A stretch of 64,000 nucleotides of DNA from Phormidesmis sp. GTDB taxonomy: Bacteria > Cyanobacteriota > Cyanobacteriia > Leptolyngbyales > Leptolyngbyaceae. Shown here in pieces: positions 1,634 to 17,612 of this stretch; the stretch's first letter is position 1, and each line of letters starts with the position of its first letter. Position numbers and translations under genes: made by a program. The stretch covers positions 1,216,001-1,280,000 of the forward strand of contig CBDFJR010000005.1 of NCBI GenBank assembly GCA_965248535.1. Direction: 5' to 3'. The notes under the pieces were generated by a model, which ran no database searches, had not been told where the DNA came from, and saw nothing but the letters and a program-made list of their open reading frames with translations.

Positions 1634-1669
1634 AATCTTTCCAAGTTCTTGACATTTGTTATTTAAAGT
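1634..1669 (+). promoter_or_regulatory. Regulon box 1 plus -10 (upstream of COG4705-MFS-response regulator)
   Basis: AATCTTTCCAAGTTCTTGAC (1634-1653) + 10 nt + TAAAGT. Confidence 0.8.
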
Positions 1670-1927
1670 AAAACATGAGGTGAATTTGTGGTGATGACGA
1701 ACACAACAATTTGCAATACTGCTTGACAGTGGGAAATTCATCTAATCATCTTATGCTGACATGATAACTCTGCGATCTCTGAATTTTTCACAGGCAGTAT
1801 CAGCAATCATGTAATTCACCAGGCAAATTTCTCTATTTTAGTTGTGAAAAATCATGAATCTGTAGGTACAAGTAAAAGTCAGGAACTGGAATGAAAAATT
1901 TTCAAAAAATCAAGCAGGAAAAATATC

Positions 1928-2695
1928 ATGAGAAGAGTGTTAAACAGGGTTCCAGAAGTTACAGGTTCCTTCTGGATTGTTAAAGTTCTGGCAACCACGG
2001 TGGGTGAAACTGCGGCTGATTTTCTATCAGTAAATTTAAACCTTGGTTTAAGCGTTACATCGTATGTTATGAGTGGCGTATTGCTGATTGCGCTTCTGAA
2101 TCAGTTTAGGCTCAAACGGTATGTCCCAGTGAGCTACTGGATTGTAGTTGTTTTGATGAGTATTACTGGCACACTGATTACTGACAGACTGGTAGATAAT
2201 TTTGGAGTTAGTTTCATGACAACTACTGTCATTTTTAGTGTTGCCTTGACAGCAGTTTTTGCACTCTGGTATTTAAACGAAAAGACATTAGCGATGCACT
2301 CCATCAACACCGCTAAAAGAGAGTTGTTCTATTGGGCAGCTATCTTATTTACGTTTGCCTTGGGCACGGCAACAGGAGACCTTCTAGCGGAGGCTTCGGG
2401 TCTAGGTTATGCACAATCAGTTCTAGTGTTTGGCGCTTTAATTGCGATCGTAGCGATTAGTTATTATTACTTTCGGCTGAATGCAGTCTTGGCATTTTGG
2501 ATAGCTTACATCTTGACTCGCCCACTTGGAGCATCTATGGGAGATTTATTATCCCAACCTACGACAATGGGTGGTTTTGGTTTGGGTACAGTTAAAACTA
2601 GTATGCTCTTTCTTTCCATAATCGTGAGCTTGATCATTTACTTAAGCCTTAAGCAGAAGAAGCCAGTCGCACTGTCCATCGATCAACAAGATTAA
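1928..2695 (+). CDS. COG4705/DUF347 family membrane protein
   Basis: NRVPEVT..FWIVKVLATTVGETAADFL, FYWAAILFTFALGTATGD, AFWIAYILTRPLGASMGDLL motifs. Confidence 0.85.
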   Translation: MRRVLNRVPEVTGSFWIVKVLATTVGETAADFLSVNLNLGLSVTSYVMSGVLLIALLNQFRLKRYVPVSYWIVVVLMSITGTLITDRLVDNFGVSFMTTTVIFSVALTAVFALWYLNEKTLAMHSINTAKRELFYWAAILFTFALGTATGDLLAEASGLGYAQSVLVFGALIAIVAISYYYFRLNAVLAFWIAYILTRPLGASMGDLLSQPTTMGGFGLGTVKTSMLFLSIIVSLIIYLSLKQKKPVALSIDQQD

Positions 2696-2855
2696 TGAAT
2701 GAGCGATCCAGCGGTGACGATTTGCCCCATTGTTCAGCAGAGATCTTGAATCGATACTACGTCTATTGCTCGATTCCAGAAGTGATAAGCTTGCTCGTAG
2801 TAGTGCCGACAAATATCTGCTTGAGTAAGACAGTCATGTTTTCGGGTCGAGATCG

Positions 2856-4037
2856 ATGAAACCTCAACTTCTCAGAAACTTGCCCCGTAACGTTTGGATT
2901 CTGGGCTTTGTGAGTTTACTCACTGATGTCAGTTCCGAGATGATTCACTCGGTGCTGCCGTTGTTTCTCGTTTCAACGTTGGGAGCGAGTGTAGCTACAG
3001 TTGGACTGATTGAAGGGGTTGCCGAGGCAACGGCTTCAGTGCTGAAAGTCTTTTCAGGCGCATTAAGTGATTACTGGGGACAGCGGAAAGGATTAGCGAT
3101 CGCTGGATACGGACTATCGACGCTTGTTAAGCCACTGTTTGCGATCGCGACCAGTCCTGCTTGGGTTTTGTTGGCTCGATTTTCCGATCGAGTGGGTAAA
3201 GGAATTCGAGTCGCTCCGCGTGATGCCCTAGTCGCAGATGTAACGGCTCCTAGCGATCTCGGTGCAGCCTATGGATTGCGTCAGTCGCTCGATACGATCG
3301 GCGCATTTCTCGGCCCCTTAATTGCCTTTGCGTTGCTATCTCTATCCGCGCAGAATTTTCGGCTGGTTTTTTGGGTAGCACTGTTGCCGGGAGTGTTGGC
3401 AGTTGCTCTACTCGCAGTTGGAGTCCAGGAACCCAAAGCGCCGATTCGGGCGAAGCAAAACCCGCTACGATGGTCGGCGCTCAAAAGTTTGAGTCGAAGA
3501 TACTGGTGGTTGGTTGGCGTTGCCCTACTCTTCAATTTGGGAAACTCCAGCGATGCCTTTTTGCTGCTTCGAGCGAAACAGGTCGGAATTGCAGATCCTC
3601 TGATTCCTTTATCTTTAGTGGTGATGAATGTAGCGTATTCGTTGAGTGCTTATCCGATCGGGTTACTCTCCGATCGCGTGGGTCGGATGGGGCTTTTAGT
3701 CGGTGGATTCTCACTCTATGCGCTGACTTATTTGGGATTTGGGTTTGTCCAAGCGCCTTGGCAAATTTGGGGGCTGTTTGCGCTCTATGGGTTGCATCTG
3801 GGAATGAGTCAAGGGTTGCTGCTGGCGATCGTCGCTGACACGATTCCCAGTGCTCTACGCGGCACTGCCTTTGGACTGATTAATCTCGTGACTGGAATCG
3901 CGCTTTTACCTGCGAGTTTACTCGCAGGATTTTTGTGGCAAAGTGTCAGTCCGCAGGCAACTTTTTTAGTAGGAAGTTTATTTGCGATCGCGGCGATTTT
4001 CCTTCTTTTGGCAATCCCTCGCGATAATGTGGATTGA
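2856..4037 (+). CDS. MFS transporter
   Basis: About 12 TM helices; GALSDYWGQRK and GLLSDRVGR motif-A loops; DRVGKGIRVAPRDAL. Confidence 0.9.
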   Translation: MKPQLLRNLPRNVWILGFVSLLTDVSSEMIHSVLPLFLVSTLGASVATVGLIEGVAEATASVLKVFSGALSDYWGQRKGLAIAGYGLSTLVKPLFAIATSPAWVLLARFSDRVGKGIRVAPRDALVADVTAPSDLGAAYGLRQSLDTIGAFLGPLIAFALLSLSAQNFRLVFWVALLPGVLAVALLAVGVQEPKAPIRAKQNPLRWSALKSLSRRYWWLVGVALLFNLGNSSDAFLLLRAKQVGIADPLIPLSLVVMNVAYSLSAYPIGLLSDRVGRMGLLVGGFSLYALTYLGFGFVQAPWQIWGLFALYGLHLGMSQGLLLAIVADTIPSALRGTAFGLINLVTGIALLPASLLAGFLWQSVSPQATFLVGSLFAIAAIFLLLAIPRDNVD

Positions 4038-4061
4038 AGCCTGAGTAATCTAGCAACACTG

Positions 4062-4736
4062 ATGAGAATTTTATTAGTTGAAGACGATCACCGAATTGCG
4101 AAGCCTTTAGCAGAAGATCTGCGACATCAGCACCATGTTGTAGACATTGCGAAAGATGGTTTAGAGGGATGGGAAGCGTCTCAGTTGGTTGCTTATGACC
4201 TGATTTTACTGGACTTAATGTTACCGAAGCTGGACGGCGTTAGCCTGTGTAAACGGTTGCGAACTGCCAAATCCCAAGCCCTAATTCTGATGCTAACAGC
4301 ACGCGACACGACGGGCGATAAAATCATTGGATTGGATGCCGGAGCCGATGATTATTTGGTTAAGCCCTTTGAACTAGATGAATTAGCCGCAAGAATTCGG
4401 GCGTTGTCACGACGAAGTTCAGAAGTCAAACCCTCAACTTTGATTCATGGTCAATTAGAAATTGATCCAAGTACTTACCATGTCACATATGGAGGCGTGC
4501 CTGTATCACTAACGCCTAGAGAATATATGATTCTGGAGTGTTTTTTACGAACTCCTAGTCAGGTTTTAACTCGTTCAGCCATCCTAGACAAGCTGTGGGA
4601 GTTTGATAAATCTTCGGGAGAAGAAACGATTAAAACTCATATTACGAACTTGCGTCGCAAGCTGAAAGTCGCTGGGAGTCCAGAGGATTTTATCGAAACG
4701 GTGTATGGTCTCGGTTATCGACTTCATTCTGTTTAA
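4062..4736 (+). CDS. OmpR/PhoB family response regulator
   Basis: LLVEDD, LDLMLP (phospho-Asp), GADDYLVKPF, winged-helix IETVYGLGYRL. Confidence 0.95.
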   Translation: MRILLVEDDHRIAKPLAEDLRHQHHVVDIAKDGLEGWEASQLVAYDLILLDLMLPKLDGVSLCKRLRTAKSQALILMLTARDTTGDKIIGLDAGADDYLVKPFELDELAARIRALSRRSSEVKPSTLIHGQLEIDPSTYHVTYGGVPVSLTPREYMILECFLRTPSQVLTRSAILDKLWEFDKSSGEETIKTHITNLRRKLKVAGSPEDFIETVYGLGYRLHSV

Positions 4737-4737
4737 C

Positions 4738-6151
4738 CAGTGGTGGGTTTGGGAGGCGATAGGTTCCACGCTCTATGCGAAGCATGAGCGCCCCTGATAC
4801 ATGGACATCCCAAGCGCCTGAGCGAAGCGAAGAAGCCCTCTCTCAGAGCATTTAACAGAATGCCTAAATTTGTTAAATTATTGGAATGTTGAGTCTGACC
4901 TACAGCTACCGAATTTATCCAGACCTCACCCAATCAGCCGAAATGCTGTCTTGGTTGGAGCAATGTAGAAAGGTCTACAACTATGCTTTGCAAGAGCGCA
5001 AGGACTGGATCAATTCGCGTAAATGTGCGGTCAACGCTTGCAGCATCAGAGCAGAATACATCCTTCCCGCAGACGTACCCTACCCCGATTACTACAAGCA
5101 GCAGAACGCGTTGACTCAAGCCAAGAACGAGATTCCTGAACTCAAACAAGTTCAGTCTCAAGTGCTGCAAGACGCGCTGCGCCGAGTCGATAAAGCCTTC
5201 AAGTTCATGAAAGAGCGGGATTTTGGGTTCCCACGCTTCAAGAAGTTTGGGCAGTATCGCTCGGTTGTGTTTCCGCAATTCAAAGCGAATCCCCTGAGCA
5301 GGAACTGCATCAAGTTGCCGAAGCTTGGGGACATCCCGATCAATCTGCACCGCCCGATTCCCGATGGATTCGAGGTGAAGCAGGTCAGAGTGGTGAAGAA
5401 AGCGTCGCGCTGGTACGCCCAATTGATTCTGCAATGCAATGTTCAAGTGCCCGACATCCTGCCCCATGGTGAACCCATCGGCATTGATTTGGGACTGGAA
5501 AAGTTCTTGGCGGTTTCGACCGGAGCGTTGATTCAACGACCCCGCTTTTTTGTGGACTTGCAAGGCAAGCTGAAATGGCTGCAACGCAAGTTAAGAAACA
5601 AAAAGAAGGGTTCTGCGAATTACCGGAAAGCCCAAGCCAAGATTCGCACTCTGCACGAACACATTCACGACACCAGGCGAGAGTTCCACTTTCAAACGGC
5701 TCACCAGCTTTGTGATCAAGTCGGGATGATCTTTGCTGAAGACCTCAACTTCAAAATGATGAGTCGAGGGATGTTGGCAAAGCATTGTTTGGACGCTGCG
5801 TGGGGGAGCTTCCTCGACATCCTCAAATGGGTGAGTTGGAAGCGAGGGGTGTTCTTTGCCAAGGTAGACCCCAACGGGACAAGTCAAACTTGCCCCAACT
5901 GTGGAGCGCAGACCGGAAAGAAAGAACTGAGTCAGCGTGTGCATGAGTGTGGTGAGTGTGGATATGTCACTGACCGAGATGTAGCTGCCGCCCAAGTGGT
6001 GATGCAGCGTGGACTTGTAGCCGTTGGGCAAACGGTGATACTGCCTGTGGAGGAAGGTTGCTTGGGAACCCCGATGAAGCAGGAAAGCTCGGTTGCGAAG
6101 CCGAGAAGCCAGCGCGCTATTGCGAAGCAATGAGCGTCTGGAGAATGTCAC
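4738..6151 (+). mobile_element. IS200/IS605-family non-autonomous (tnpB-only) element
   Basis: Related subterminal hairpins (CGCTCTATGCGAAGCATGAGCG near 4769; CGCTATTGCGAAGCAATGAGCG near 6114). Right end GAGAATGTCAC; TTAAC precedes the inferred left end. Exact ends are inferred. Confidence 0.7.
4886..6133 (+). CDS. tnpB: RNA-guided endonuclease TnpB
   Basis: YSYRIYP, GIDLGL (RuvC-I), AEDL (RuvC-II), CPNCG..CGECG Zn finger, DRDVAAA (RuvC-III). Confidence 0.95.
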   Translation: MLSLTYSYRIYPDLTQSAEMLSWLEQCRKVYNYALQERKDWINSRKCAVNACSIRAEYILPADVPYPDYYKQQNALTQAKNEIPELKQVQSQVLQDALRRVDKAFKFMKERDFGFPRFKKFGQYRSVVFPQFKANPLSRNCIKLPKLGDIPINLHRPIPDGFEVKQVRVVKKASRWYAQLILQCNVQVPDILPHGEPIGIDLGLEKFLAVSTGALIQRPRFFVDLQGKLKWLQRKLRNKKKGSANYRKAQAKIRTLHEHIHDTRREFHFQTAHQLCDQVGMIFAEDLNFKMMSRGMLAKHCLDAAWGSFLDILKWVSWKRGVFFAKVDPNGTSQTCPNCGAQTGKKELSQRVHECGECGYVTDRDVAAAQVVMQRGLVAVGQTVILPVEEGCLGTPMKQESSVAKPRSQRAIAKQ

Positions 6152-6157
6152 CTCAGT

Positions 6158-6193
6158 AATCTTTTCAAGTTCTTGACATTGTTTCTCTACGAT
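6158..6193 (+). promoter_or_regulatory. Regulon box 2 plus -10 (upstream of uppP-histidine kinase)
   Basis: AATCTTTTCAAGTTCTTGAC + 10 nt + TACGAT. Confidence 0.8.
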
Positions 6194-6222
6194 AAGAGCG
6201 TTGTTTTAACTCTCGGCGTAGA

Positions 6223-7116
6223 ATGATTTCTTACCTTATGGTCACTTCCGCTTGTTCGAGCGATGTTGATTTGGGATTTGTGCAACTCGGCTGGTTTAAG
6301 GTCATGATCTTGGGCATTGTTCAAGGCATTACTGAGCTACTGCCAATTAGTAGTACGGCTCATCTGCGAATTGTTCCAGGTTTGCTGGGATGGCAAGATC
6401 CAGGCAGCGCCTTTAGTGCTGCGATGCAGTTAGCTAGTCTGACGGCGGTTGTCACTTATTTCTGGAAAGACCTTAACCGTATGACTGGCGCAACCATTCG
6501 AGCCATTGCACAACAAGACTATCAGGATCAAGATTTTCGACTCGCGATCGGGCTACTCGTTGGAACCATTCCCATTGGAATTACTGGGTTGCTGCTGAAA
6601 AAAACGCTCAATGCCTGTAATTCTCCGTTTCGCGCCCTTACCGTCGTTGGGATTGCATCGATCGTCATGGCTCTGTTACTGGCAATCGCAGAGAAACGCG
6701 GCAAGCGAAATCGGGAGTTCAATAAACTTTCGATGCAAGACGGAATTTGGGTAGGTCTTGCTCAAGCTTTGGCGCTCATTCCTGGAGTCTCTCGTTCTGG
6801 CTCGACGCTCACCGCAGGACTTTTCTTAGAAATGGATCGTGAAACGGCTGCCAGATTTTCCTTTTTACTCGGATTGCCAGCCATCATTTTAGCAGGCGCA
6901 CTCGAACTGCATACACTATTCAAAGCTGGGCTTGACCTCTATGGGTGGATGATTCTACTGGTCGGACTGGTTACAGCTAGTCTTTCTGCATTTGCTGCAA
7001 TTTACGGACTCCTTCACTATTTAGAAAAACGCTCTACCTGGGTATTTGTTTGGTATCGTCTGATTATGGGTGTATTCCTACTCGTCGGAGTTAGTGCGGG
7101 ATTTCTTCGCAATTAG
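6223..7116 (+). CDS. uppP: Undecaprenyl-diphosphate phosphatase (BacA/UppP)
   Basis: GIVQGITELLPISSTAHL and ALIPGVSRSGST signature motifs. Confidence 0.95.
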   Translation: MISYLMVTSACSSDVDLGFVQLGWFKVMILGIVQGITELLPISSTAHLRIVPGLLGWQDPGSAFSAAMQLASLTAVVTYFWKDLNRMTGATIRAIAQQDYQDQDFRLAIGLLVGTIPIGITGLLLKKTLNACNSPFRALTVVGIASIVMALLLAIAEKRGKRNREFNKLSMQDGIWVGLAQALALIPGVSRSGSTLTAGLFLEMDRETAARFSFLLGLPAIILAGALELHTLFKAGLDLYGWMILLVGLVTASLSAFAAIYGLLHYLEKRSTWVFVWYRLIMGVFLLVGVSAGFLRN

Positions 7117-7157
7117 TTACCCTTAGTGTTAGCTGTTCTCTATTGCCTTCAGCATTT

Positions 7158-8405
7158 GTGTTTAAGCAGATTCAGTATCGCTTGTTGGTTTCCTACCTCA
7201 TCGTTTTCACAGCGATTTTAGGAACGTTTGCGATCGCTGTTCGCATTGTTTACGGGTATAGTCTGAAGCAGCAACTCACCGACAAACTCGTCGCATTAGG
7301 ACAAGGAGCAGTATCCAGCGCAGACGTAAATAACGGTCGGCTCGAAGTCGGGCATGACATTTCTGCTCAAGATTTAATTACGCGGGGTCAAGCACTGCAA
7401 TGGTTTGATCTTCAGGGTCGATTGATGACTCAGCAAGGAAAAACGGTGACGACCTTACCGTTTTCGAGCAGTGAAACTTCTCAAGTTCAGAGATCACACC
7501 CTCGTATCCAATCGATCACGTTACCCATTGTCAGCAGCGACAATCAACACCGCTTTGGATATGTTAGAGCGAGTCAATCTCTCGAAGAATTAGATGAAAA
7601 TCTGCGAAAGCTCGACTGGGGTTTAGGAAGTGGAATTGTGATGGCACTGATTCTCAGCGGTATTGGAGGGGTTTGGTTAACTCGCCAAGCCATGCAGCCG
7701 ATCGAGGAAAGTTTTGAGCGTCTGAAACAATTTACGGCGGATGCGTCCCATGAATTACGAAGTCCGTTGATGGTCATTAAAAGCAATGTATCTGTCGCTC
7801 TAAAATATTCAGATGGGATGCGCCCAACTGATGCCGAAAAGTTTGATGCGATCGCGAGTGCGACTCATCAAATGACTCACCTCACCGAAGACTTATTGTT
7901 ACTAGCGCGGACTGATAAGGTAGCAGTTCCAGATCGACAACCTGTTAATTTAACCCAAGTTTTAGAGCAGATAGTTGAGTTATACCAGCCTCAGGCCCAG
8001 ACCAAGCAAATCAGCCTGCAAGCTCACCTTGCTCAGTCTGCTTTTGTGCTAGGTGACTCAGCACAACTGATTCGATTGTTCATAAATCTAATTGTGAATG
8101 CTTTGCACTACACTCTAGAGCGAGGAAAGGTCGAGGTAAAGTTAAATCGAACTGGGCAAAGCCTTGTGGTTGACGTGAGCGATACGGGAGTCGGAATTGC
8201 TCCAGAACATCTAGCGCGGGTGTTTGACCGATTTTGGCGGGCGGATCAGTCGCGCTCTCATGAGGATGGCGGGTCTGGGTTAGGACTCGCGATCGCGCAA
8301 TCGATCGCTCAAAGTCATGGCGGGACAATCAGCGTCAGTAGTCAGGTTGGGGTTGGCACTTGTTTCACCGTGCAGTTGCCTCTCTTAACAAGACTATTTC
8401 CCTGA
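7158..8405 (+). CDS. Sensor histidine kinase (probable GTG start at 7158)
   Basis: Two TM segments, H-box FTADASHELRSPL, N-box NLIVNAL, G-boxes DTGVGI and GGSGLGLAI. Confidence 0.93.
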   Translation: MFKQIQYRLLVSYLIVFTAILGTFAIAVRIVYGYSLKQQLTDKLVALGQGAVSSADVNNGRLEVGHDISAQDLITRGQALQWFDLQGRLMTQQGKTVTTLPFSSSETSQVQRSHPRIQSITLPIVSSDNQHRFGYVRASQSLEELDENLRKLDWGLGSGIVMALILSGIGGVWLTRQAMQPIEESFERLKQFTADASHELRSPLMVIKSNVSVALKYSDGMRPTDAEKFDAIASATHQMTHLTEDLLLLARTDKVAVPDRQPVNLTQVLEQIVELYQPQAQTKQISLQAHLAQSAFVLGDSAQLIRLFINLIVNALHYTLERGKVEVKLNRTGQSLVVDVSDTGVGIAPEHLARVFDRFWRADQSRSHEDGGSGLGLAIAQSIAQSHGGTISVSSQVGVGTCFTVQLPLLTRLFP

Positions 8406-8426
8406 TTGCCAGTCCAGTGCGACTAA

Positions 8427-9290
8427 TTATGGTACTTTCTCTAGTAGAACAAACCCAGTATATTGTGTGATGGTTTGCCAATATCGTCTAGCAAAACAGC
8501 GGATTAAAATTTCAGCAACTCCGACTAAGTGGGTTTGCCGATTGCAAAGACAAGCCGCTTGCCAAATCGATCGAAACTCCTTCACTCTCCAGCCATAGGG
8601 TCGAAAAAAATCTGTGCCCTCATCAGGAGCAAACAAAAAGGTTGCCTTCCCATTCGCGAAGTATTGGTCAAATAGCCTTTGTCGGTCAGATTTTTGAGCC
8701 TGCTGTAATATCATCGACGAGGCTAACTCAAACATCCACCAGCGAAAATTCGATTGCTGATGTAAATCGGCTGCAAGAGATGCAACTTGTGCTTCAGTCA
8801 GATAAGACAACAAACCTTCTGTAATCACAAGAGCTTGGTTTGCCGAGGCGTTGACCTGTGCAAACAGATTTTTTCTCAAGGCGACATCAGTAAGGTCTAG
8901 CTTGATTCGTTCTACCCAACAAACGGGCTGTTCGCTCTTCAGTATCTGCTCTTTGTGCGTCAGAATGCCTGGGAAATCAACCTCAATCCAGCGCAGGGAA
9001 GCCGGAAGATTTAACCGATAGGGACGGGTATCTAATCCAGCCGCTAGGTTTAGAACAGTGTCAACGCTGCCTGATTCTACAAGGCGTGTGATCATCCCAT
9101 CGATCGTGCAGGTGCGAATTGCCATTGCAGCGATTCCTTGTTGTTTCTCCCCCAGCACTTCAACCATCATTGCTCCTTCTCCGCCGGCCAAGCGACGCGC
9201 AAATAGATCTTGAAACAGTGCATCTGGACGTTCACTTTCTAAGGCGCGATACATAGCAACTAAGTGGGCCGTTGCAGAAATATTATTCAT
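8427..9290 (-). CDS. SAM-dependent methyltransferase, leucine carboxyl methyltransferase (LCM)-like family
   Basis: TAHLVAMYRALESERPDALFQD.FA, LNLAAGLDTRPYRL, ITEGLLSYL. Confidence 0.88.
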   Translation of the reverse strand: MNNISATAHLVAMYRALESERPDALFQDLFARRLAGGEGAMMVEVLGEKQQGIAAMAIRTCTIDGMITRLVESGSVDTVLNLAAGLDTRPYRLNLPASLRWIEVDFPGILTHKEQILKSEQPVCWVERIKLDLTDVALRKNLFAQVNASANQALVITEGLLSYLTEAQVASLAADLHQQSNFRWWMFELASSMILQQAQKSDRQRLFDQYFANGKATFLFAPDEGTDFFRPYGWRVKEFRSIWQAACLCNRQTHLVGVAEILIRCFARRYWQTITQYTGFVLLEKVP

Positions 9291-9799
9291 AGTTCATCAG
9301 AATCAGCAAAGTCCGAGAGTGCAAAAATTGGCTTGCGATAAGCGAGATACCGAAACTCCGATTCTTGAAAATGCTGCTTTACAACTTTTAATCCCTGCGA
9401 TCGTAGTATCGGAGCCATCTGTTCTGCTACATTAAAGAACAGTGGCTGCCATCCGTAGGCTTCAGTAAAGGTTAGAAACTCATACAGCGCCACTATAATC
9501 TGTGAATTGCGCCCTTTGAAGTTTTCGCCAGAAATGCTCACCACGAGCCGCTGAAATGCCTCAAAAACAGTTTGTTCATGAATCGCTCGGAGATGTTCAG
9601 ACTGCTCGATTGCCAAGATAGTGTAGCTAATAGAAGGAGATATGTATGCTCTATTATTCCTACAGAATCGCATCTGGTGATCAACGAAAATCTGTGAAAT
9701 TACTTCTATAGTCAATAGATTGTTCGCATTCTGCTTTGACAGTTCTGTTGAAGCGACTAACGGTCGGCGAGTTATTGAAGTATTTATCAATTTAGTCAC
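9287..9799 (-). CDS. Hypothetical protein with weak resemblance to the aminoacyl-PG synthase (DUF2156) domain
   Basis: EFLTFTEAYGWQPLFFNVAEQMAPILRSQGLK parallels SFQQFCDLNDWYAAFYEVPPDQLDLYTSLGLR of the MprF in this window. The GTG start overlaps the upstream stop (GTGA). Confidence 0.45.
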   Translation of the reverse strand: MTKLINTSITRRPLVASTELSKQNANNLLTIEVISQIFVDHQMRFCRNNRAYISPSISYTILAIEQSEHLRAIHEQTVFEAFQRLVVSISGENFKGRNSQIIVALYEFLTFTEAYGWQPLFFNVAEQMAPILRSQGLKVVKQHFQESEFRYLAYRKPIFALSDFADSDEL

Positions 9800-9954
9800 G
9801 GAAACCTTGCCTGCTGGCAAGTTGAATAATCAGGATCACACGAACGACTCATTGTCACAACAAGGTTGATCAGCATTGCTGCAAAGACTATTGTTGCTAG
9901 GCTAATTATCAGGATCTGAAACACCAGTTTGAGCGGGTAATATTTTCCGTCCAT
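9796..9954 (-). CDS. Unannotated 52-aa single-TM small protein
   Basis: MDGKYYPLKLVFQILIISLATIVFAAMLINLVVTMSRSCDPDYSTCQQARFP; lies downstream of regulon box 3; stop overlaps the next start. Confidence 0.6.
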   Translation of the reverse strand: MDGKYYPLKLVFQILIISLATIVFAAMLINLVVTMSRSCDPDYSTCQQARFP

Positions 9955-10113: not shown

Positions 10114-10149
10114 ATTCTAAAGGGTAAAAGTCAAGAACTCGGAAAGATT
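10114..10149 (-). promoter_or_regulatory. Regulon box 3 plus -10
   Basis: Minus strand AATCTTTCCGAGTTCTTGAC + 10 nt + TAGAAT. Confidence 0.8.
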
Positions 10150-10271
10150 CAGTGATCTGCAATGTTTTTGAAGAAAAGCTATAAAAAGACTAACTTTTCT
10201 GCTCTCCTGAGTATTAGATGATAAGCAAAGTCTATAAGCCTTCTAGCAAGGGTTCTATGCTCTAGACAACA

Positions 10272-10313
10272 CTAATTTTGTAGTTGATAATATGGTTTCA
10301 ACTACAAAATTAG
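10272..10313. repeat. Perfect 16-bp inverted repeat
   Basis: CTAATTTTGTAGTTGA-N10-TCAACTACAAAATTAG. Confidence 0.85.
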
Positions 10314-10363
10314 GAGAGCCACTTTTCTCGTGCTAAGACTCCTTATTCCTCACAATTCTAGTC

Positions 10364-10399
10364 AATCTTTCCGAGTTCTTGACTTTTTTCATCTATTTT
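10364..10399 (+). promoter_or_regulatory. Regulon box 4 plus -10
   Basis: AATCTTTCCGAGTTCTTGAC + 10 nt + TATTTT. Confidence 0.75.
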
Positions 10400-10468
10400 A
10401 AGAAAGCATCGCTTCGATAAAAGGATTTTAGTCGATCCCAGCCTCTTATTCCTTTGCTTTGTATTCCT

Positions 10469-11629
10469 ATGCCCCTTGGGTCAATCCGTTCGGTCTCACC
10501 TTTTTTGGTACTTGACCGATACATTGCATCTCAATTAGCAAGTCCCTTTTTGTTTGGCGTTGCAGCATTGTCTTCAATTCTGGTGTCAGTTGGCGCACTC
10601 TTCGATCTGATTCGCAAAATGACGGATGCTGGGCTACCTCTGTCGATCGCGTTCAAAGTCTTTTCCTTCCAAGTGCCTGAATTCGTCAGCTTGTCGTTTC
10701 CAATGGCAACGCTGCTATCAACGTTGATGGTGTATGGTCGTCTTTCGACCGACAGCGAACTAATCGCGCTTCGCAGCGCTGGCATTAGTGTTTACCGACT
10801 AATTGCACCCGCGATCGTGTTGAGCTTGTTGGTGTCAGCTTTAACGTTTGGGTTCAACGAAGCGATCGTTCCTGCGGCTAAGTATCAAGCATCTGTCACG
10901 CTGGATAGTGCCTTGAAGCGGGATAAACCTGCGTTCCAGCAGAATAATATTGTTTATCAACAGTATGGCGACGTAAAGCAAGCTGATGGTAGCAAGGTGC
11001 AAGTTTTAGAGCGAATTTTCTATGCAAAACAGTTCGATGGTAAGCAAATGAAAAGTCTGACTGTGTTAGATTTTTCCCAAAATGGACTCTGCCAGATCAT
11101 TACTGCCCAAACTGCGACGTGGAATACCTCTCGCAGCACCTGGGATTTCTTTAATGGCACGATTTATGTAATTGCACCCGATGGGTCTTATCGCAATATT
11201 CTTAAGTTTGAACAGCAGCAACTACAGCTTTCTCGGACTCCGTTAGATCTTGCCAGTCGGCAACCAGATGAAGGTGAGATGAATATTGAGCAGATTCAGA
11301 ATTATCTCAAGTTGGTCAAGCAAAGTGGAGACGAGAAACTTGTGATCAAATTACGTTTACGGATTCAGCAGAAAATAGCGTTTCCGTTGGTCTGTCTAGT
11401 TTTTGGTTTAACAGGCGCAACACTCGGCACTCGCCCTCAACGCGGCGGTAAAGGAACTAGCTTTGCCATTAGTATCGTAATCATTTTCACGTACTATTTA
11501 CTTTCATTTATCTGTGACTCATTTGGGCAACTTGAGATTTTATCTCCTGTTATTGGAGCTTGGTTGCCTACGATCGCAGGATTACTGGCAAGAGCGTTTC
11601 TTTTATTGCGGGCAGAAGAGTACCGCTGA
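10469..11629 (+). CDS. LptF/LptG family permease
   Basis: LDRYIASQL..PFLFGV, YGRLSTDSELIALRSAGISVYRL, QKIAFPLVCLVFGL. Confidence 0.9.
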   Translation: MPLGSIRSVSPFLVLDRYIASQLASPFLFGVAALSSILVSVGALFDLIRKMTDAGLPLSIAFKVFSFQVPEFVSLSFPMATLLSTLMVYGRLSTDSELIALRSAGISVYRLIAPAIVLSLLVSALTFGFNEAIVPAAKYQASVTLDSALKRDKPAFQQNNIVYQQYGDVKQADGSKVQVLERIFYAKQFDGKQMKSLTVLDFSQNGLCQIITAQTATWNTSRSTWDFFNGTIYVIAPDGSYRNILKFEQQQLQLSRTPLDLASRQPDEGEMNIEQIQNYLKLVKQSGDEKLVIKLRLRIQQKIAFPLVCLVFGLTGATLGTRPQRGGKGTSFAISIVIIFTYYLLSFICDSFGQLEILSPVIGAWLPTIAGLLARAFLLLRAEEYR

Positions 11630-11770
11630 ATTTGATAACAAGATTCTGTCTAGAGTTGAATTAGGGTTCGAGGCTCAAAACCAATTCAAATTTTGGTCGA
11701 AGTATGGTGTTGTCACAATACGATAGAAATTATCATCCTAACTTAGGGCATTAAGGACTATTCAGCATCA

Positions 11771-13453
11771 ATGAAATATAAAATCATACCAAAAAATCTA
11801 ACACTAAAGTTGTTCTCATTATTCAAGAACATTCCACTCACAAAACCAGACTCAAACCTGAGAACAATATTGATACTGGCATCAATATTTTTTGTTTTCA
11901 TGGTCGTTTTCTCACTCAATCGCTACTACAGTTTTTACTCATCCTACGATCAAGGACTTTTTAACCAGTTGTTTTGGAATGGTCTCCGTGGACATTTGTT
12001 TCAAGGCTCTCTTTCCTCTGGTCAATCAAGCGCTGTTCTAGATGATGGTCAAATAGCTACAGCATCTTACTACCATTTGGGACAACACTTTGTTCTTGAC
12101 TTTTTGCTTTGGCTACCGATATATGCTCTATTTCCTAACGGTGCTACTTTAGTGATTTTACAAATCACATTAGTTACGGCAGCAGGAATGGTCTTGTTCG
12201 CTCTAGCTCGTCATTATCTCCCTTTCTCGATCGCTGTTTTAATGACTGCTAGTTTTTACGGCTCTATCGCTGTGATGGCACCGTCATTGGGTAATTTTTA
12301 TGAGGCTTGCCAGATTCCTCTATTCGTATTCAGTTTACTACTTGCTTTAGCAAAACGTAGATGGCGATTGTTTTGGCTCTTTGTTGCTTTGACATTAGGA
12401 ATTCGAGAAGACACAGGGTTTATCATCTTTAGCATTGGTGCCTACTTAATTTTAATCCGTCGCTATTTTCGCTTAGGCTTGGCTTTATGCCTATTAAGTT
12501 TTAGCTATATTGCTCTAGTAACAAACGTATTAATGCCGTTGTTTTCTAATGATAGTTCCCGTCTATACGTAAAAAGTTACTTTCACCAGTATGCTCAGTA
12601 TGTTCAAGGAGGTACTCCTACTACTCTGCAACTTCTCTGGAGCATCATCAGTCACCCTAAAGAACTGGCAGTGAGTTTATTGACTCCCTTCGATCGGCGG
12701 GTAGAGTACCTTTCACTTCAATGGCTCCCTTTGGCATTTGTCCCTGCGCTCTCTCCTGCAACTTGGGTACTGACAGCCTTTCCATTACTGGAACTGTTGC
12801 TTCAAAAAAGTGATAAAGCGCTTTCCATCAATATCCGCTATGCATTGAACGTCGTTCCCGGACTGTTTTATGGTGCAATTCTGTGGTGGGCAAACCATCA
12901 ACATCAATTTAGACCACGCTTTCGTCGATTTTGGAGAGGATGTATCGCCTTGTCTATCCTTCTAGCAATTACGACAAATGGACAAGGAGCTTTCTACTTT
13001 TTAATTCCAGATTTTGGTCACCCTGCACTCTATATTTCTCTCAGTCGCCAATGGGAACATGCAAGCCAGGTCAAGGCATTAATGAACTTGATTCCGCCGC
13101 AAGCTAGCGTCTCAGCGACCGCCTTTCTGATTCCGTATCTGTCAGGTCGGCGAGAGATTATAGAACTAGCGAATGAGCGCTTGCCGTCTCTGATGATCCG
13201 CAATGACAAAGGAGAAATAAATCCTGTTGACTATATCTTAGCTGACTTATGGCGGCTGCAACGGTACCAAGTCGTCAGAAAACCTGATCGGCAGAGACTT
13301 CAAGCGCTTGTCCCTCTACTAGATACACTTATTGCTCAACAAAAGTATGGCATTCTGAATATACAAGACAAGGTTGTTCTCTTACAGAAAGCAACGACAT
13401 CTTCCCCTCAAGCTCAGACTGATTGGTTAAAGTTGCGTTCAGAATTAAAATAA
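11771..13453 (+). CDS. DUF2079-like polytopic membrane protein (GT-C type glycosyltransferase candidate)
   Basis: YSSYDQGLFNQLFWN, LGQHF, GIREDTG, IPPQASVSAT..LIPYLSGRR. Confidence 0.75.
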   Translation: MKYKIIPKNLTLKLFSLFKNIPLTKPDSNLRTILILASIFFVFMVVFSLNRYYSFYSSYDQGLFNQLFWNGLRGHLFQGSLSSGQSSAVLDDGQIATASYYHLGQHFVLDFLLWLPIYALFPNGATLVILQITLVTAAGMVLFALARHYLPFSIAVLMTASFYGSIAVMAPSLGNFYEACQIPLFVFSLLLALAKRRWRLFWLFVALTLGIREDTGFIIFSIGAYLILIRRYFRLGLALCLLSFSYIALVTNVLMPLFSNDSSRLYVKSYFHQYAQYVQGGTPTTLQLLWSIISHPKELAVSLLTPFDRRVEYLSLQWLPLAFVPALSPATWVLTAFPLLELLLQKSDKALSINIRYALNVVPGLFYGAILWWANHQHQFRPRFRRFWRGCIALSILLAITTNGQGAFYFLIPDFGHPALYISLSRQWEHASQVKALMNLIPPQASVSATAFLIPYLSGRREIIELANERLPSLMIRNDKGEINPVDYILADLWRLQRYQVVRKPDRQRLQALVPLLDTLIAQQKYGILNIQDKVVLLQKATTSSPQAQTDWLKLRSELK

Positions 13454-13456
13454 AAA

Positions 13457-13652
13457 CATTAGACCTCCTGTGTGAATCTTTTTGCCCTCACTCTACCCTC
13501 GCTCCTTAGAAGAAGGAACAAGAACTCTAGCCCTTCTCTTTTGGGAGAAGGGTTGGGGATGAAGGTCTTAACTATTCGTACAGAAGACATCATGAATGCG
13601 CGATCGCTCTCACAACCCCGGATGAAAATCTATTTCCAAAGGAGGTCTAATG
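13457..13652. mobile_element. MITE-like element containing a cyanobacterial short dispersed repeat
   Basis: 13-bp TIR CATTAGACCTCCT...AGGAGGTCTAATG; internal CCCTTCTC..GAGAAGGG hairpin. Confidence 0.55.
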
Positions 13653-13716
13653 TAATTGTCATTGGGTCAATGTAATTGCGCTCTATAGTTTTCTACTACC
13701 GTATACTGTTCTCTGC

Positions 13717-14526
13717 TTAGTGTCCCTGTCTTGCTGGCTTCTGCGGAAAGAGCAAGATCCCCAACACGATTAACACTAGCAGGGTTGCCGATGCCGAGTA
13801 GCGGCTTAACTCTAAGCCACCTTTGCTGACGGGTTTGTCTAAAAAGTCACCGACGACTGCGCCCAGCGGCCGAGTCAAGATAAAGGCTGCCCAAAATAGC
13901 GCCGTGCTAGATATTCGTGTTCGGTAGTACGCCGCCGCGATCGCTGCCAGCATCGTCCCAAACACGAGGGCACTTCCCAAATACCCAAGACCCTGGGTAT
14001 CGGCTGTCCAATCGCCCAGCGCCGTCCCTAAGGTTTGCGAAAACATAATCGTGACCCAATAGAATATCTCAGATCTGGGCGACCCCACTGTGTGAACCGC
14101 GATCGACCCCAGCGTGCGATACCACAAGAATAGAGATGCCAAGAGCAAGGTCAGCAAGATTGCCGTACCGCCCGCATAGCCAATGCCCAGAGAACGATCT
14201 ACAAAATCTGCCAGGGTTGTGCCCACGGTTGTAGTGGCGATAATCGTCGTCCAGTACAGGATGGGATTGAATTTCTTCGCGAGAACCTGAGCGATGACTG
14301 CAACGGCAAAGATAACGACGAAGATCCCAGTACTGGTGAGATAGCCAAGATTCATGGACATAGACACAGCATCTCCGCCCGTCTCACCCAGAGTTGTGGC
14401 AAGAATCTTGATGATCCAGAAAAGCAAGGTGACTTGCGGAACCTTGCTGATCAGATCACCCCGGAAGCGTTCATCTGATTGTTGAGATGCCGTCATTCGA
14501 TACTCCTTATGCGGTTGATTTGCCAT
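13717..14526 (-). CDS. COG4705/DUF347 family membrane protein (second paralog)
   Basis: SKVPQVTLLFWIIKILATTLGETGGD, FYWVTIMFSQTLGTALGD, FWAAFILTRPLGA. Confidence 0.85.
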   Translation of the reverse strand: MANQPHKEYRMTASQQSDERFRGDLISKVPQVTLLFWIIKILATTLGETGGDAVSMSMNLGYLTSTGIFVVIFAVAVIAQVLAKKFNPILYWTTIIATTTVGTTLADFVDRSLGIGYAGGTAILLTLLLASLFLWYRTLGSIAVHTVGSPRSEIFYWVTIMFSQTLGTALGDWTADTQGLGYLGSALVFGTMLAAIAAAYYRTRISSTALFWAAFILTRPLGAVVGDFLDKPVSKGGLELSRYSASATLLVLIVLGILLFPQKPARQGH

Positions 14527-14628
14527 AATCGAAAATTGAAATTAACAACGCTTGTAAGGCTTAGACGGATTTGCATTGCAAGTCGTTCATTCCCTTGAGC
14601 AACTGTATCTGAACCTGTGACTTTGCAT

Positions 14629-14664
14629 AGATTAGCGAGAGAAAGTCAAGAACTTGGAAAGATT
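14629..14664 (-). promoter_or_regulatory. Regulon box 5 plus -10
   Basis: Minus strand AATCTTTCCAAGTTCTTGAC + 10 nt + TAATCT. Confidence 0.8.
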
Positions 14665-14695
14665 AGTGAATGACTTTGCTGCTGTGCCGAGTCAG

Positions 14696-14731
14696 AAAAA
14701 TCCCCTCAATTTCCTGATCAAAAATTGAGGG
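14696..14731 (-). terminator. Intrinsic terminator after the PepSY gene
   Basis: CCCCTCAATTT/AAATTGAGGGG stem followed by a T run on the minus strand. Confidence 0.6.
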
Positions 14732-14823
14732 GTCAAACTGCTACAAGCTTGCAGTCAACGTTAGATCAGCACTACCTATCCTTGTCAAAGGAGGATTACA
14801 AGACTCGATCGATAGCTTTTTTA

Positions 14824-15409
14824 TCAGCCATCGTCATTGGTTTCACCATCCGTTTGAGGAACCTGGATGCTGCTACGAGGTTGAGTCTTCTCGTTGTTCT
14901 CCCTGGTTGGCGTGTTTGTACCGAGAACTCTACCGTTGCCTGCATCTACGATCACTTCATTCTGTGTCCTACGGAGTTGCGCGGAGCGCTAATCACAACG
15001 CATAAACTAAGCTGCCGTTTTCACTTTCTAGCTTGACATTGCTGGCAGTTCCTTTGACAGTGGCTTCAGCCGCTTGCTGTGCCTGCTGAGACGTGATTTT
15101 AGCCAAGGATTGCAGTTTTTGAGATTCCTGCTGTTCCTTCACGTCGTCATTGGTTTCACCATCTCCGTCACTCGCTTCTGCCTTTTGAGTCGGTTTGTTT
15201 GCTTGAAGTTGAGACTTAAGAGCGTTTTCTGGTGCTTCTGTCGCAGGATTGGCTTCGCTATCTCCGTCACTCTTTTCGGTGACTTGAGCAGCGGGCATGA
15301 CTGCAACAGGAGATTGCATCTGAGCTGCGTTAACCAGTTTAGCTAGACCGCCGAGTCCTAATGTTCCGATCGCAGCAGCCGTCAAAATGAGTTTTGTTGA
15401 AGTTTTCAT
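14824..15409 (-). pseudogene. PepSY-domain secreted protein, frame broken near 14965-14995
   Basis: Signal peptide, AKITSQQAQQAA..VKLESENGSLVYA, then a stop. The tail QNEVIVDAGNGRVL...DGETNDDG* continues in another frame. Confidence 0.75.
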
Positions 15410-15444
15410 CGAGTCAAATCCACCTAATATCGGTTTGCCATTTC

Positions 15445-15480
15445 ACTGTATGCACTGAAAGTCAAGAACTTGGAAAGATT
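15445..15480 (-). promoter_or_regulatory. Regulon box 6 plus -10
   Basis: Minus strand AATCTTTCCAAGTTCTTGAC + 10 nt + TACAGT. Confidence 0.8.
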
Positions 15481-15627
15481 GGAGTCAAGCTAAAAAAGTT
15501 GTGGCTCCTCATGATTACTCTGCTTTTCAAGCAATCATTGAAGCGCTCTGAGATCAAGTTAATAGAAGGTGAGATCAACAAAGCCAACGGTTGGTGAATC
15601 ACGCCGGAATAATTCTTCACAAGTGCA

Positions 15628-15663
15628 AATCTTTCCAAGTTCTTAACGTTTGCTTTCTACACT
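15628..15663 (+). promoter_or_regulatory. Regulon box 7 plus -10
   Basis: AATCTTTCCAAGTTCTTAAC + 10 nt + TACACT. Confidence 0.8.
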
Positions 15664-15735
15664 TCAAAAAGTAAGCTTGAGTAATTCTCTAAGCCTTGCA
15701 ATGACAGAAAAATAAGCCCAAGAGCAAGGTCAAAA

Positions 15736-17424
15736 ATGGCGTTAACACGACGAGACCAGATTGGACTGTGGACAGCCACGCTCCTCACGAGTTTGACTGG
15801 AATTGCTAATCTAATCTCTGCGGTTACGCCCAGCTTGCCAGAGCGAATCGAGTGGCTCAGGAAAATTTTTCCGTTTCCAGTACGAGCGGGTGGACACTTT
15901 TTTGCTGCCATTAGTGGATTTATCTTGCTCACACTCGCGGCTCACCTACTGCGACGCAAGCGGGTAGCGTGGTTACTGACCGTTGGTCTGCTGGTCATCT
16001 CCATCTTAAGCAACCTGATTAAAGGGTTCGACTACGAGGAAGGATTATTGTCAGGAGTGCTGCTGCTTCAGTTGATTTTGATGAGGCGTGTCTTTACCGC
16101 ACAGTCAGACCAACCTTCGATCGCCCAAGGCATTAGAGTCTTGGTTGGTGCGCTCTTGTTTACCTTGGCTTATGGAACACTGGGATTCTACATTCTGGAT
16201 GGACGGTTTACGATCGATCAACAGTTTGTCAATTTTGGCTTTAGGCAGGCACTTTTGCAGACATTAGCCATGTTTTTTACAGGAGACAATGCAGGTCTAG
16301 AAGCGAAAACCCGATTTGGTCAATTTTTTGCTGATTCTATTTACATGGTTGGTGCGACCACGTTGGGCTATGCATTGTTTATGCTGCTGCGGCCTGTGTT
16401 GCTCCGAGGCGATCCGTCTAAGACATCTGAGTGGGAGCGTGCGAGAGCGATCGTGGATCAGCATGGGCAAACCTCGCTCGCTCGACTGGCACTGTTGGAA
16501 GATAAAGCCTATTACTTTAGCCCGTCAGGTCAAACGGTCATTGCTTATGTCGCAAAAGGACGAGCCGCAATCGCGTTAGGTGATCCGATTGGTTCAGTTG
16601 AAGATCGACAAGAAGCGATTGTTAGCTTTCAGCAATTTTGCGATCTCAATGACTGGTATGCAGCATTTTACGAGGTTCCGCCTGATCAACTTGACCTCTA
16701 CACTTCTCTCGGTTTGCGATCGCTGCAAGTTGGTGAAGAGGCAATTATCAATCTCAAAACGTTTTCACTAAAGGGAAAAGCAAACCAAAATTTGAGAACG
16801 GCTGTTAACCGTCTCACAAAGATAAGATATACGGCTCAGGTTTATGCTCCTCCGATCTCAGACACGTTGCTCCGTCAACTCAAGCCCGTGAGTGATGAAT
16901 GGTTGCAGCACAAACAAGGGGCGGAAAAGCAATTCTCGATCGGTTGGTTTGATCCAGACTACCTACGAGAGTGCTTCATTGGAGTTGTTTTTGATGCAGA
17001 GTATCAGATTATTGCTTTTGTCAATTTGCTGTCAAACTACCATCAGCCAGAAGTAACCGTTGACCTGATGCGGCATCGCCAGGAGGTTCCCAATGGAACA
17101 ATGGACTTCCTGTTTGTTTCACTCTTGCAGCACTTTCAGCAGCTTGACTATGATGGCTTTAATTTCAGTCTTTCCCCGCTAGCAGGGGTTGGAGAAGCAC
17201 CCAATTCCCAACGGACTGAGAAGGCATTGCACTATCTCTCAACGCACTTGAATCAGTTTTACAACTTTCAGGGGTTACGTGAGTTTAAGGAGAAATTCCA
17301 ACCTCAGTGGGAACCTCGCTATCTTGTCTATCCGAGCCTGTCCGCATTACCGGATATCGTGGTCGGGCTGGTGAGAGCCGATTCGGGCGATCGCTGGCTC
17401 GATTATTTCAAACCTGACGCTTAA
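15736..17424 (+). CDS. mprF: Phosphatidylglycerol aminoacyl(lysyl)transferase, MprF-like synthase lacking most of the flippase domain
   Basis: LLRRKRVAW TM block, ALGDPIG, GEEAII, VDLMRH..PNGTMDFLF, YNFQGLREFKEKFQPQWEPRYL. Confidence 0.88.
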   Translation: MALTRRDQIGLWTATLLTSLTGIANLISAVTPSLPERIEWLRKIFPFPVRAGGHFFAAISGFILLTLAAHLLRRKRVAWLLTVGLLVISILSNLIKGFDYEEGLLSGVLLLQLILMRRVFTAQSDQPSIAQGIRVLVGALLFTLAYGTLGFYILDGRFTIDQQFVNFGFRQALLQTLAMFFTGDNAGLEAKTRFGQFFADSIYMVGATTLGYALFMLLRPVLLRGDPSKTSEWERARAIVDQHGQTSLARLALLEDKAYYFSPSGQTVIAYVAKGRAAIALGDPIGSVEDRQEAIVSFQQFCDLNDWYAAFYEVPPDQLDLYTSLGLRSLQVGEEAIINLKTFSLKGKANQNLRTAVNRLTKIRYTAQVYAPPISDTLLRQLKPVSDEWLQHKQGAEKQFSIGWFDPDYLRECFIGVVFDAEYQIIAFVNLLSNYHQPEVTVDLMRHRQEVPNGTMDFLFVSLLQHFQQLDYDGFNFSLSPLAGVGEAPNSQRTEKALHYLSTHLNQFYNFQGLREFKEKFQPQWEPRYLVYPSLSALPDIVVGLVRADSGDRWLDYFKPDA

Positions 17425-17445
17425 AGTCATGCTGAACTCCTACAC

Positions 17446-17521
17446 AAAAAATCCCAGCTAAAGCCGGGAAGTAAAGGTGAGAGGATAAATCTACAATAGT
17501 TAAAATTGAAAGACTTCCTCT
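17446..17521 (-). ncRNA. Putative ~76-nt small RNA driven by regulon box 8
   Basis: Promoter box, then a short ORF-less stretch, then the terminator UCCCGGC-UUUA-GCUGGGA-UUUUUU; internal UCCUCUCACCUU tract. Confidence 0.6.
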
Positions 17522-17527
17522 AAAAAG

Positions 17528-17563
17528 AGTGTAGTAGAAGAAAGTCAAGAACTTGGAAAGATT
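17528..17563 (-). promoter_or_regulatory. Regulon box 8 plus -10
   Basis: Minus strand AATCTTTCCAAGTTCTTGAC + 10 nt + TACACT. Confidence 0.8.
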
Positions 17564-17576
17564 GGCTGGTTTTACG

Positions 17577-17612
17577 GTTCTTTTCAACTTCTTGACGTTT
17601 GTTCGATACATT
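17577..17612 (+). promoter_or_regulatory. Regulon box 9 plus -10
   Basis: GTTCTTTTCAACTTCTTGAC + 10 nt + TACATT. Confidence 0.7.

Follow-up and report, generated by a model that had tools for sequence, protein, structure and literature searches.

A recurrent promoter box and the two-component regulon proposed for it in Phormidesmis sp.

Organization of the locus

The DNA analysed, called here the window, is a stretch of 64,000 nucleotides (nt) from Phormidesmis sp. (assembly GCA_965248535.1, contig CBDFJR010000005.1, positions 1,216,001 to 1,280,000), part of a near-complete genome of 5.03 Mb. It contains an island marked by nine copies of a 20-nt box. Eight copies with 0-1 mismatch start at 1634+, 6158+, 10130-, 10364+, 14645-, 15461-, 15628+ and 17544-, and the ninth, with 4 mismatches, at 17577+. 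Together with a -10 hexamer each box forms a 36-bp unit, which is probably the promoter of an autoregulated two-component regulon devoted to envelope remodelling. A first-pass annotation, made from the sequence alone, had listed the same nine copies and hexamers, and all were found again when the window was scanned.

Box 1 and its -10 TAAAGT (1634..1669, +; box 1634-1653) head an operon encoding a DUF347 (COG4705) membrane protein of 255 amino acids with eight predicted helices (1928..2695, +), an MFS transporter of 393 amino acids (2856..4037, +) and an OmpR/PhoB-family response regulator of 224 amino acids (4062..4736, +), which carries the helix signature ETIKTHITNLR and is the proposed binder of the box. 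The predicted structure of the DUF347 protein (pLDDT 84) gave no fold match above Z 7.9, and an Atlas search returned DUF347 alone. An IS605-family element with tnpB (4886-6133), a passenger present in 4 genome copies and with presumed ends at 4737..6151 (+), has been inserted between the regulator stop codon and box 2. In two relatives (L206 and L208) the box directly follows the regulator stop, so box 2 can be regarded as native despite this insertion. A weak match to Rfam RAGATH-18 is located at 6044-6085, at the 3' end of tnpB, where the guide RNA of tnpB-type elements is expected. Box 2 and its -10 TACGAT (6158..6193, +) head the genes of the undecaprenyl-diphosphate phosphatase UppP/BacA (6223..7116, +), which scores above the NCBIfam cut-off, and of a sensor histidine kinase (7143..8405, +; possible start 7158) with helices at about residues 15-33 and 161-179 and a periplasmic domain of about 125 amino acids.

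Box 3 and its -10 TAGAAT (10114..10149, -; box 10130-10149) are followed by a one-helix membrane peptide of 52 amino acids (9796..9954, -), a 177-amino-acid open reading frame (ORF) for which no family was found (9287..9820, -) and, as last gene of the operon, a SAM-dependent methyltransferase (LCM/TIGR00027; 8427..9290, -), whose counterparts in other genomes stand directly behind a box. The 177-amino-acid ORF was also considered as a fragment of MprF, and the comparison came out against this. Box 4 and its -10 TATTTT (10364..10399, +) precede an LptF/LptG-family permease (10454..11629, +), with which a DUF2079 membrane protein (11771..13453, +) is probably co-transcribed. Box 5 and its -10 TAATCT (14629..14664, -; box 14645-14664) point to a second DUF347 protein of 269 amino acids (13717..14526, -), and box 6 and its -10 TACAGT (15445..15480, -; box 15461-15480) to a secreted acidic PepSY-domain protein (14800..15409, -; 3' end approximate). 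Box 7 and its -10 TACACT (15628..15663, +) precede a short MprF-like aminoacyl-phosphatidylglycerol synthase of 562 amino acids (15736..17424, +), whose score falls short of the cut-off for the bifunctional MprF model. A 27-amino-acid ORF antisense to the end of mprF was set aside, no support having been found for it.

Box 8 and its -10 TACACT (17528..17563, -; box 17544-17563) form the predicted promoter of a candidate small RNA (sRNA) of about 76 nt (17444..17521, -), composed of a 5' hairpin, a CU-rich seed UCCUCUCACC and an intrinsic terminator (17469-17452). Box 9 and its -10 TACATT (17577..17612, +) form the promoter of a PAP2 phosphatase gene, of which the 5' part (17642..17768, +) is separated from a decayed 3' remnant (18910..19045, +) by a DDE-transposase insertion sequence (IS; 17769..18909, -), which has inverted repeats at its ends and is flanked by a 9-bp duplication of the target (17760-17768 / 18910-18918); an intact paralogue with the same box exists at about G000:C5 2318042. 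The PepSY gene is frameshifted near 14996 in the assembly and encodes 138 amino acids, against 150-200 in relatives. The local copy of the regulon is partly decayed, three of its targets being damaged or interrupted.

Box motif and promoter geometry

A -10 hexamer of the form TAnnnT lies exactly 10 nt past all nine boxes, and among 173 matches of a 20-mer matrix, 156 show TAnnnT at exactly this distance. The eight near-exact copies compare with a chance expectation of 0.02 on average and 1 at most in 100 shuffles. What the nine copies have in common is confined to the 20-mer itself, a pair of T's in the spacer and the hexamer's T-A---T; their flanking DNA could not be aligned. Each copy is intergenic and aimed at a gene start or, in one case, at the candidate sRNA, as had been claimed from the first inspection. 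The box had been described as TCTT-N7-TCTT with an 11-bp period; the repeat holds, and a pair of heptamers separated by 4 bp, TCTTTCC-N4-TCTTGAC, lying across the -35 position, describes it better. Perfect TCTTGAC-N4-TCTTGAC versions are present in relatives. If transcription begins about 7 nt past the -10, the first heptamer would span about -40 to -34 and the second about -29 to -23. An 11-bp-period direct repeat over the -35 at a fixed distance from the -10 is the layout of OmpR/PhoB class II promoters, which bears out the Pho-box-like geometry suggested earlier. A degenerate tenth box without a -10 was observed at 10051-10070 (-), 79 bp downstream of box 3.

Positions -35 to -30 read CCAAGT-like in all nine boxes, not TTGACA, so the promoter should need an activator, and on the sequence data activation rather than repression is very probable. 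Some OmpR-family proteins, such as ManR, are repressors, and a regulator that, phosphorylated or not, occupied the box and blocked the promoter until a signal arrived would find the box suitably placed, overlapping the polymerase footprint; repression near the -10 is known for SphR at urtA (PMC13226834). Such repression is nevertheless unlikely here, as the lack of a usable -35 under the box and the strict 10-nt phasing fit recruitment, and BqsR activates from the same position (PMC4358008).

Several IS elements occur in the region, and the TTGAC of the box resembles a -35 hexamer, so that the repeat might be taken for the end of a mobile element or the -35 element of an alternative sigma factor. 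The distance from TTGACN to the -10 is, however, 9 nt, which is far too short between -35 and -10 for any sigma-70-family promoter. The non-aligning flanks and the limited conservation indicate that the box is not the end of an IS or of a miniature inverted-repeat transposable element (MITE); the copies all lie between genes and are oriented toward a gene or the RNA unit, and there is no genome-wide scatter. The first-pass annotation had itself raised the possibility of an IS or MITE end scattered over the genome, which the flanks and the total of 11 genomic sites largely rule out; explanations of this kind are hardly credible.

Distribution of the box

When the whole genome was ranked with a matrix trained solely on 105 boxes of other genomes, the nine boxes of the window together with C5:2317977 took the first ten places (35.7-49.1 bits; next 21.0), and four shuffles of the genome yielded 0, 0, 0 and 1 site at or above 20 bits. 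The two extra copies, C5:2317944- and C5:2317977+, lie 1.08 Mb away, the former being weaker and facing the other. The statement that no copy occurs beyond 17.7 kb is correct for boxes with a -10 in the window and does not extend to the genome; the genome-wide scan suggested with it restricts the sites to the island and one duplicate. This duplicate (G000:C5:2317830-2318720; L009:9830-10720) corresponds to the segment with the mprF tail, the RNA, the box pair and PAP2. Its PAP2 gene is intact and its RNA copy decayed, and it adjoins genes for a P-type ATPase and a MerR-CbiC protein.

Across the phylum, single-box matches were near control level (42 of 401 genomes against about 23), and two or more matches were obtained only with the real motif. 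The strict window pattern was matched in 10 of 17 genomes of the clade and in 31 of 383 others, kin not being independent in this comparison.

The regulator and its recognition helix

The protein encoded at 4062 belongs to the OmpR/PhoB family, with a PF00072 receiver and a PF00486 Trans_reg_C domain both above cut-off. Its clade (23 of the 57 rows of a quick tree, SH-aLRT 100) was found in 50 of 401 genomes of the class at E<=1e-90 and on 12 plasmids, a patchy distribution that marks it as mobile. When 40 regions were retrieved with the regulator as the sole query, 39 contained a clade member, and in 36 of these 39 a box with the 10-nt spacing was present within about 10 kb; the three loci without a box are short contigs or contig ends. 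Over all clade loci, some of which were first found by their box, the box was identified in 55 of 62. No box lies within 10 kb of the regulator's four closest paralogues in the host genome (50-56% identity).

The bases of the box also vary with the recognition helix. K191 is accompanied by C as final base in 100 of 101 boxes and R191 by T in 13 of 13, while base 7 is T with E/D188 (59 of 60 boxes), G with G188 (34 of 40) and mixed with Q/N188. Counted by locus, trait and base agree in 55 of 55 cases for residue 191 and the last base and in 43 of 45 for residue 188 and base 7. On a tree built without the recognition-helix columns, four paired changes were counted for the former and 5-6 for the latter, in step. 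Residues 191 and 188 align with Glu215 and Asn212 of PhoP from Mycobacterium tuberculosis, two residues that touch the final and the central base pairs in a repeat of 7 bp with a 4-bp spacer (PMC4832192; the base-pair numbering is our own deduction from that source). One further regulator, with T195R, adjoins boxes ending in CCC.

The first-pass annotation had named the 4062 regulator as the likely binder and proposed autoregulation. The former gains from clade co-occurrence and helix-base covariation, on which it is highly probable that a regulator of the 4062 type binds the box; the latter is favoured by boxes that immediately precede the regulator or the kinase gene in several relatives. 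The box might instead be recognised by the phosphate regulator SphR, by a paralogue encoded on the chromosome or by the second two-component pair (20873-22578). In favour of such binders, half-site 2 differs from the SphR unit YTTAAYYW by 1-2 mismatches, the targets include phosphatases, and the second pair lies 3 kb away. Against these candidates, the first half-site departs from the SphR unit by 3 mismatches in all nine boxes, the regulator at 20873 is N-terminally cut beside an IS and has no box, the sites are restricted, within this genome, to the island and its one duplicate and, among genomes, to those that possess the 4062 clade, and the box bases covary with the 4062-type helix. Binding by any of them is very improbable.

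Regulon content across genomes

The regulon is not specific to this island; it is a patchy, often plasmid-borne module with variable cargo. Cargo was counted by BLASTP against the window and selected references in the 61 other clade loci: the kinase was present in 56, PepSY in 28, DUF347 in 26, PAP2 in 12, MFS in 9, DUF2127 in 9, the MprF-like enzyme in 6 and UppP in 4. Targets that recur are DUF347, PAP2 and the secreted acidic PepSY protein, whose start codon usually follows the -10 by 30-37 nt. Further cargo includes bestrophin channels, glycosyltransferases and GH3-family enzymes.

Sensor kinase and candidate signal

The periplasmic domain of the kinase has an ExxE motif just before helix 2 (E149xxE152). 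In ColS the metal-sensing ExxE is likewise located just before the second helix (PMC4074579). The PepSY proteins contain repeated acidic DGDGE stretches, and metal-export genes are frequent neighbours; about 5-11 kb before the window (L010:4884-11996) there are genes for an ArsR repressor, a heavy-metal P-type ATPase, a cation-efflux protein and an ABC transporter, the first three 7-11 kb upstream, and the second PAP2 copy likewise has metal-related genes beside it, those of the P-type ATPase and the MerR-CbiC protein. These features suggest, at about even odds, that the signal is an excess of metal cations or a related cationic or acid stress on the envelope.

The same regulator and box might instead respond to shortage of the lipid carrier, to attack by cell-wall antibiotics or peptides of the bacitracin type, or to low pH, which is possible although somewhat less probable. 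UppP, PAP2 and MprF-like enzymes, all among the targets here, are classic answers to cell-wall antibiotic and lipid-carrier stress; the sensor has no strictly conserved metal motif but an invariant Arg34 and a near-invariant Asp158 at the membrane surface, and the cluster of one relative includes anion channels and CrcB. UppP and the MprF-like enzyme are nevertheless rare in the other loci, as counted above, the commonest target is the acidic secreted protein with DGDGE repeats, and genes for metal export often lie nearby.

The candidate small RNA

The unit behind box 8 is 76 nt long, with two hairpins (fold z -3.6), and ends in the intrinsic terminator; the seed is partly paired in the predicted fold. 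A similar unit is located behind a box in G574, and a pattern derived from both retrieved another in G745, also behind a box. Reading behind all boxes gave more units in G514, G708, G733 and G725 (two), and in Chroococcidiopsis a unit lies behind a box of the sister type described below. A model built on nine units added four copies behind boxes (G538, G285, G135 and G496) and one good copy without a box. This model is noisy at low score, where it gives matches without boxes: in 90 genomes of the family, 16 matches comprised 8 training units, 2 new units behind boxes and 6 without a box, and in 61 genomes of another order one of 3 matches lay behind a box. A strict seed-plus-terminator rule, derived from the same sequences on which it was counted, was satisfied behind 9 of 231 boxes and in 4 of 40,000 random genome windows. 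A metagenome scan with the RNA pattern gave 26 matches, none behind a box, which are taken as chance.

The seed is one base off the core of the Yfr1 motif, with 9 of 10 seed bases. The exact Yfr1 motif occurs in G496, a copy from the sister system, and near-exact versions occur in G708 and G135. An Rfam search found nothing relevant, RF01116 giving no match at E<=1 or <=10, and the exact motif ACUCCUCACAC is not present, so that the candidate is not itself assigned to Yfr1; the genome's own Yfr1 is found elsewhere, as a single match at C2:1224512. Likenesses to Yfr1/Yfr10-like sRNAs are the size, the hairpin-linker-terminator build and the CU-rich seed near the Yfr1 core (PMC2190773, PMC6778093), while Yfr1, as presented there, is near-constitutive and the candidate stands behind a regulator box. 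Additional RNAs carrying the Yfr1 motif in other structural or genomic settings are known (PMC6778093), and in Nostoc Yfr1 acts as a repressor of porin and peptidoglycan genes (PMC6974561). The best predicted pairings of the seed, all putative, include those with C2:1372901 (a gene of 425 amino acids with AAAGGTGAGAGGA before its start) and C2:801165 (an exported protein of 570 amino acids).

The recurrence of the unit behind boxes elsewhere lends support to the sRNA first suggested at this position, and the unit behind box 8 is likely to be expressed. That it is only a terminator or a leftover leader without function of its own, and not a trans-acting sRNA, is rather unlikely. This alternative is consistent with the second copy in the host genome, which does not fold (z +1.6), with the position of the unit in the leader of a small membrane-protein gene beside sister regulators, with one copy that has no box within 400 nt and with predicted targets that show no clear theme. 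However, downstream of the box 8 unit there is only the opposite strand of mprF; in G745, G733, G538, G708 and G285 the unit has its own box and the next gene a separate one; and the seed is conserved although the sequence of both stems varies.

Comparison with known systems

The literature search covered open-access full text, as distinct from figures and supplements. Within this scope no description of the box or the regulon was found, in agreement with the earlier remark that the motif was not recognised as a described cyanobacterial site; five exact box strings gave no match, and neither a described cyanobacterial envelope-remodelling regulon nor a Yfr1-type RNA under a two-component regulator was encountered. 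PepSY, DUF347 and PAP2 were not found in the main text of a 202-genome RNA screen (PMC12873609), whose supplements may contain the RNA.

The operon of BqsRS (CarSR) from Pseudomonas aeruginosa includes PepSY genes. This system resembles the present one in its 11-bp-period repeat over the -35, activation, autoregulation and output to cationic stress (PMC4358008). It differs in its box TTAAG-N6-TTAAG, its phylum and its cargo, and its RExxE Fe(II) motif is not seen in the kinase here (PMC4358008). ColRS of Pseudomonas putida is likewise an OmpR-type pair, with an asymmetric direct repeat ending in …SAC, a regulon of membrane genes and a neighbouring methyltransferase (PMC2689224), and ColS is a two-helix sensor with an acidic patch just before helix 2 (PMC4074579). 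The system is nonetheless distinct from ColRS: 2-4 of the 16 consensus positions of the box YYNASNNYTTTTTSAC are mismatched (PMC2689224), the ExxE is conserved in ColS and present in 31 of 57 orthologues here (PMC4074579), and in the available portions of the two accounts colRS is not autoregulated and has no PepSY/DUF347/sRNA core (PMC2689224, PMC4074579). PhoP of M. tuberculosis reads a 7-bp repeat as a tandem dimer with a strict 4-bp spacer, although its heptamer is TCACAGC and it is a global regulator, not a local module (PMC4832192).

Among cyanobacterial systems, RppA/NrsR and RppB/NrsS, a metal-related pair family, supply the best NCBIfam matches. The scores (231.6 and 284.1 bits) fall below the equivalog cut-offs of 250 and 400, and annotated RppA is 44% identical and outside the 23-row clade. 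CopR recognizes TTCAT-N4-5-TTCAT, also at the mntC and nrs promoters (PMC4182526); three such sites occur in 1-19500, none inside a box. The Pho site of SphR consists of repeats of YTTAAYYW with a 3-nt spacer before phosphate genes (PMC13226834), and all nine boxes deviate from it, with 3 mismatches to the unit in the first half and 1-2 in the second. The comparison with SphR, CopR and NrsR that had been envisaged earlier thus gave no match. No Synechocystis plasmid was among 27 plasmid matches at E<=1e-42, and the portions of PMC4361706 and PMC7760821 consulted list Synechocystis regulators and give no motif.

Proposed mechanism and significance

The system is interpreted, with a probability of about 0.8 and from sequence comparison, as an undescribed regulon for envelope remodelling that is mobile, controls its own expression and resembles ColRS and BqsRS in its mode of action, its two-component pair activating the 36-bp promoters. 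The kinase at 7143 would phosphorylate the 4062 regulator, as family and synteny suggest. To judge from the geometry and from PhoP and BqsR, a head-to-tail regulator dimer would then occupy the two heptamers, from about -40 to -23, replace the missing -35 and recruit RNA polymerase to the -10 situated 10 nt further on, the 36-bp unit acting as an activator-dependent sigma-70-type promoter. Since regulator and kinase both stand behind boxes, positive feedback would be expected. The output would consist of the PepSY protein, DUF347, UppP, PAP2, the MprF-like enzyme and the LptF/G permease, and may serve to recycle the lipid carrier and to make the envelope less negative, while the sRNA, with its anti-Shine-Dalgarno-like, Yfr1-like seed, may damp the translation of other messages.

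Several observations weigh against this interpretation. Cargo is highly variable between genomes, the PepSY and PAP2 genes are broken at this locus, and only 9 of 231 boxes are followed by an RNA unit. On starred branches of the tree only 1 and 2 independent pairs of changes remain, and the sign test is not significant. The ExxE motif, found in this kinase, is present in only 31 of 57 orthologues, whose periplasmic domains have no conserved His, Cys or Met, so that metal sensing is weakly supported. Finally, sister regulators (53-62% identity, helix KVH) adjoin a related box ending in TTTAC, often with 11-nt spacing; box and regulator therefore form a family with possible cross-talk, and the motif family is wider than one regulator.

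A more far-reaching version of the proposed regulon, offered tentatively, is a mobile circuit for envelope stress in which the pair induces lipid-remodelling genes together with a Yfr1-like RNA. This inducible RNA would act alongside the constitutive Yfr1 network or in competition with it and so lower the output of envelope messages, the periplasmic PepSY protein would be a cation buffer or feedback partner, and natural variants of the regulator would provide a two-residue, two-base specificity code and orthogonal inducible promoters for use in cyanobacteria.

The regulon is apparently an undescribed member of a well-known class, unusual for its visible protein-DNA specificity code and for a regulator-driven Yfr1-like RNA; its textbook design makes it a solid new system and not a new principle. 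Sites are known for few response regulators of cyanobacteria, and a precise one with predicted start points is given here. The regulon connects the DUF347 and PepSY proteins, which are uncharacterised, with a stress response and links a regulator to a Yfr1-like RNA, and the natural helix/base swaps can be used to learn how OmpR proteins read DNA. Culturable carriers include Nostoc punctiforme PCC 73102, Anabaena cylindrica PCC 7122 and the plasmids of Chroococcidiopsis thermalis PCC 7203.

Sister loci and other features of the window

The box of the sister two-component family reads TCTTTCCGAGTTCTTTAC and has 11-nt spacing in most cases (L171:11619-12537, L131, L132, L120, L187 and L336). These boxes precede a lipoprotein gene and a small PepSY-TM-like gene, and three of the loci also carry an RNA with the Yfr1 motif. 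In Chroococcidiopsis a sister box is located before an aquaporin-Mn catalase-VIT1 operon.

Upstream of box 1 the window contains a lipoprotein with a 'sunset' domain (470-865) and an apparent membrane-protein gene fragment on the opposite strand (972-1331), neither behind a box. Downstream of the island there is an oxidoreductase gene fragment (19377-19664), followed by an IS701-like element beside the second response regulator (20873), whose N-terminus is truncated, and a HAMP kinase (19653-22578). A serine recombinase in two ORFs, a resolvase and a recombinase with zinc ribbon (32293-33899, -), possibly marks the boundary of a larger mobile region, and a tRNA-Ala(CGC) gene is found at 50526-50598 (-).

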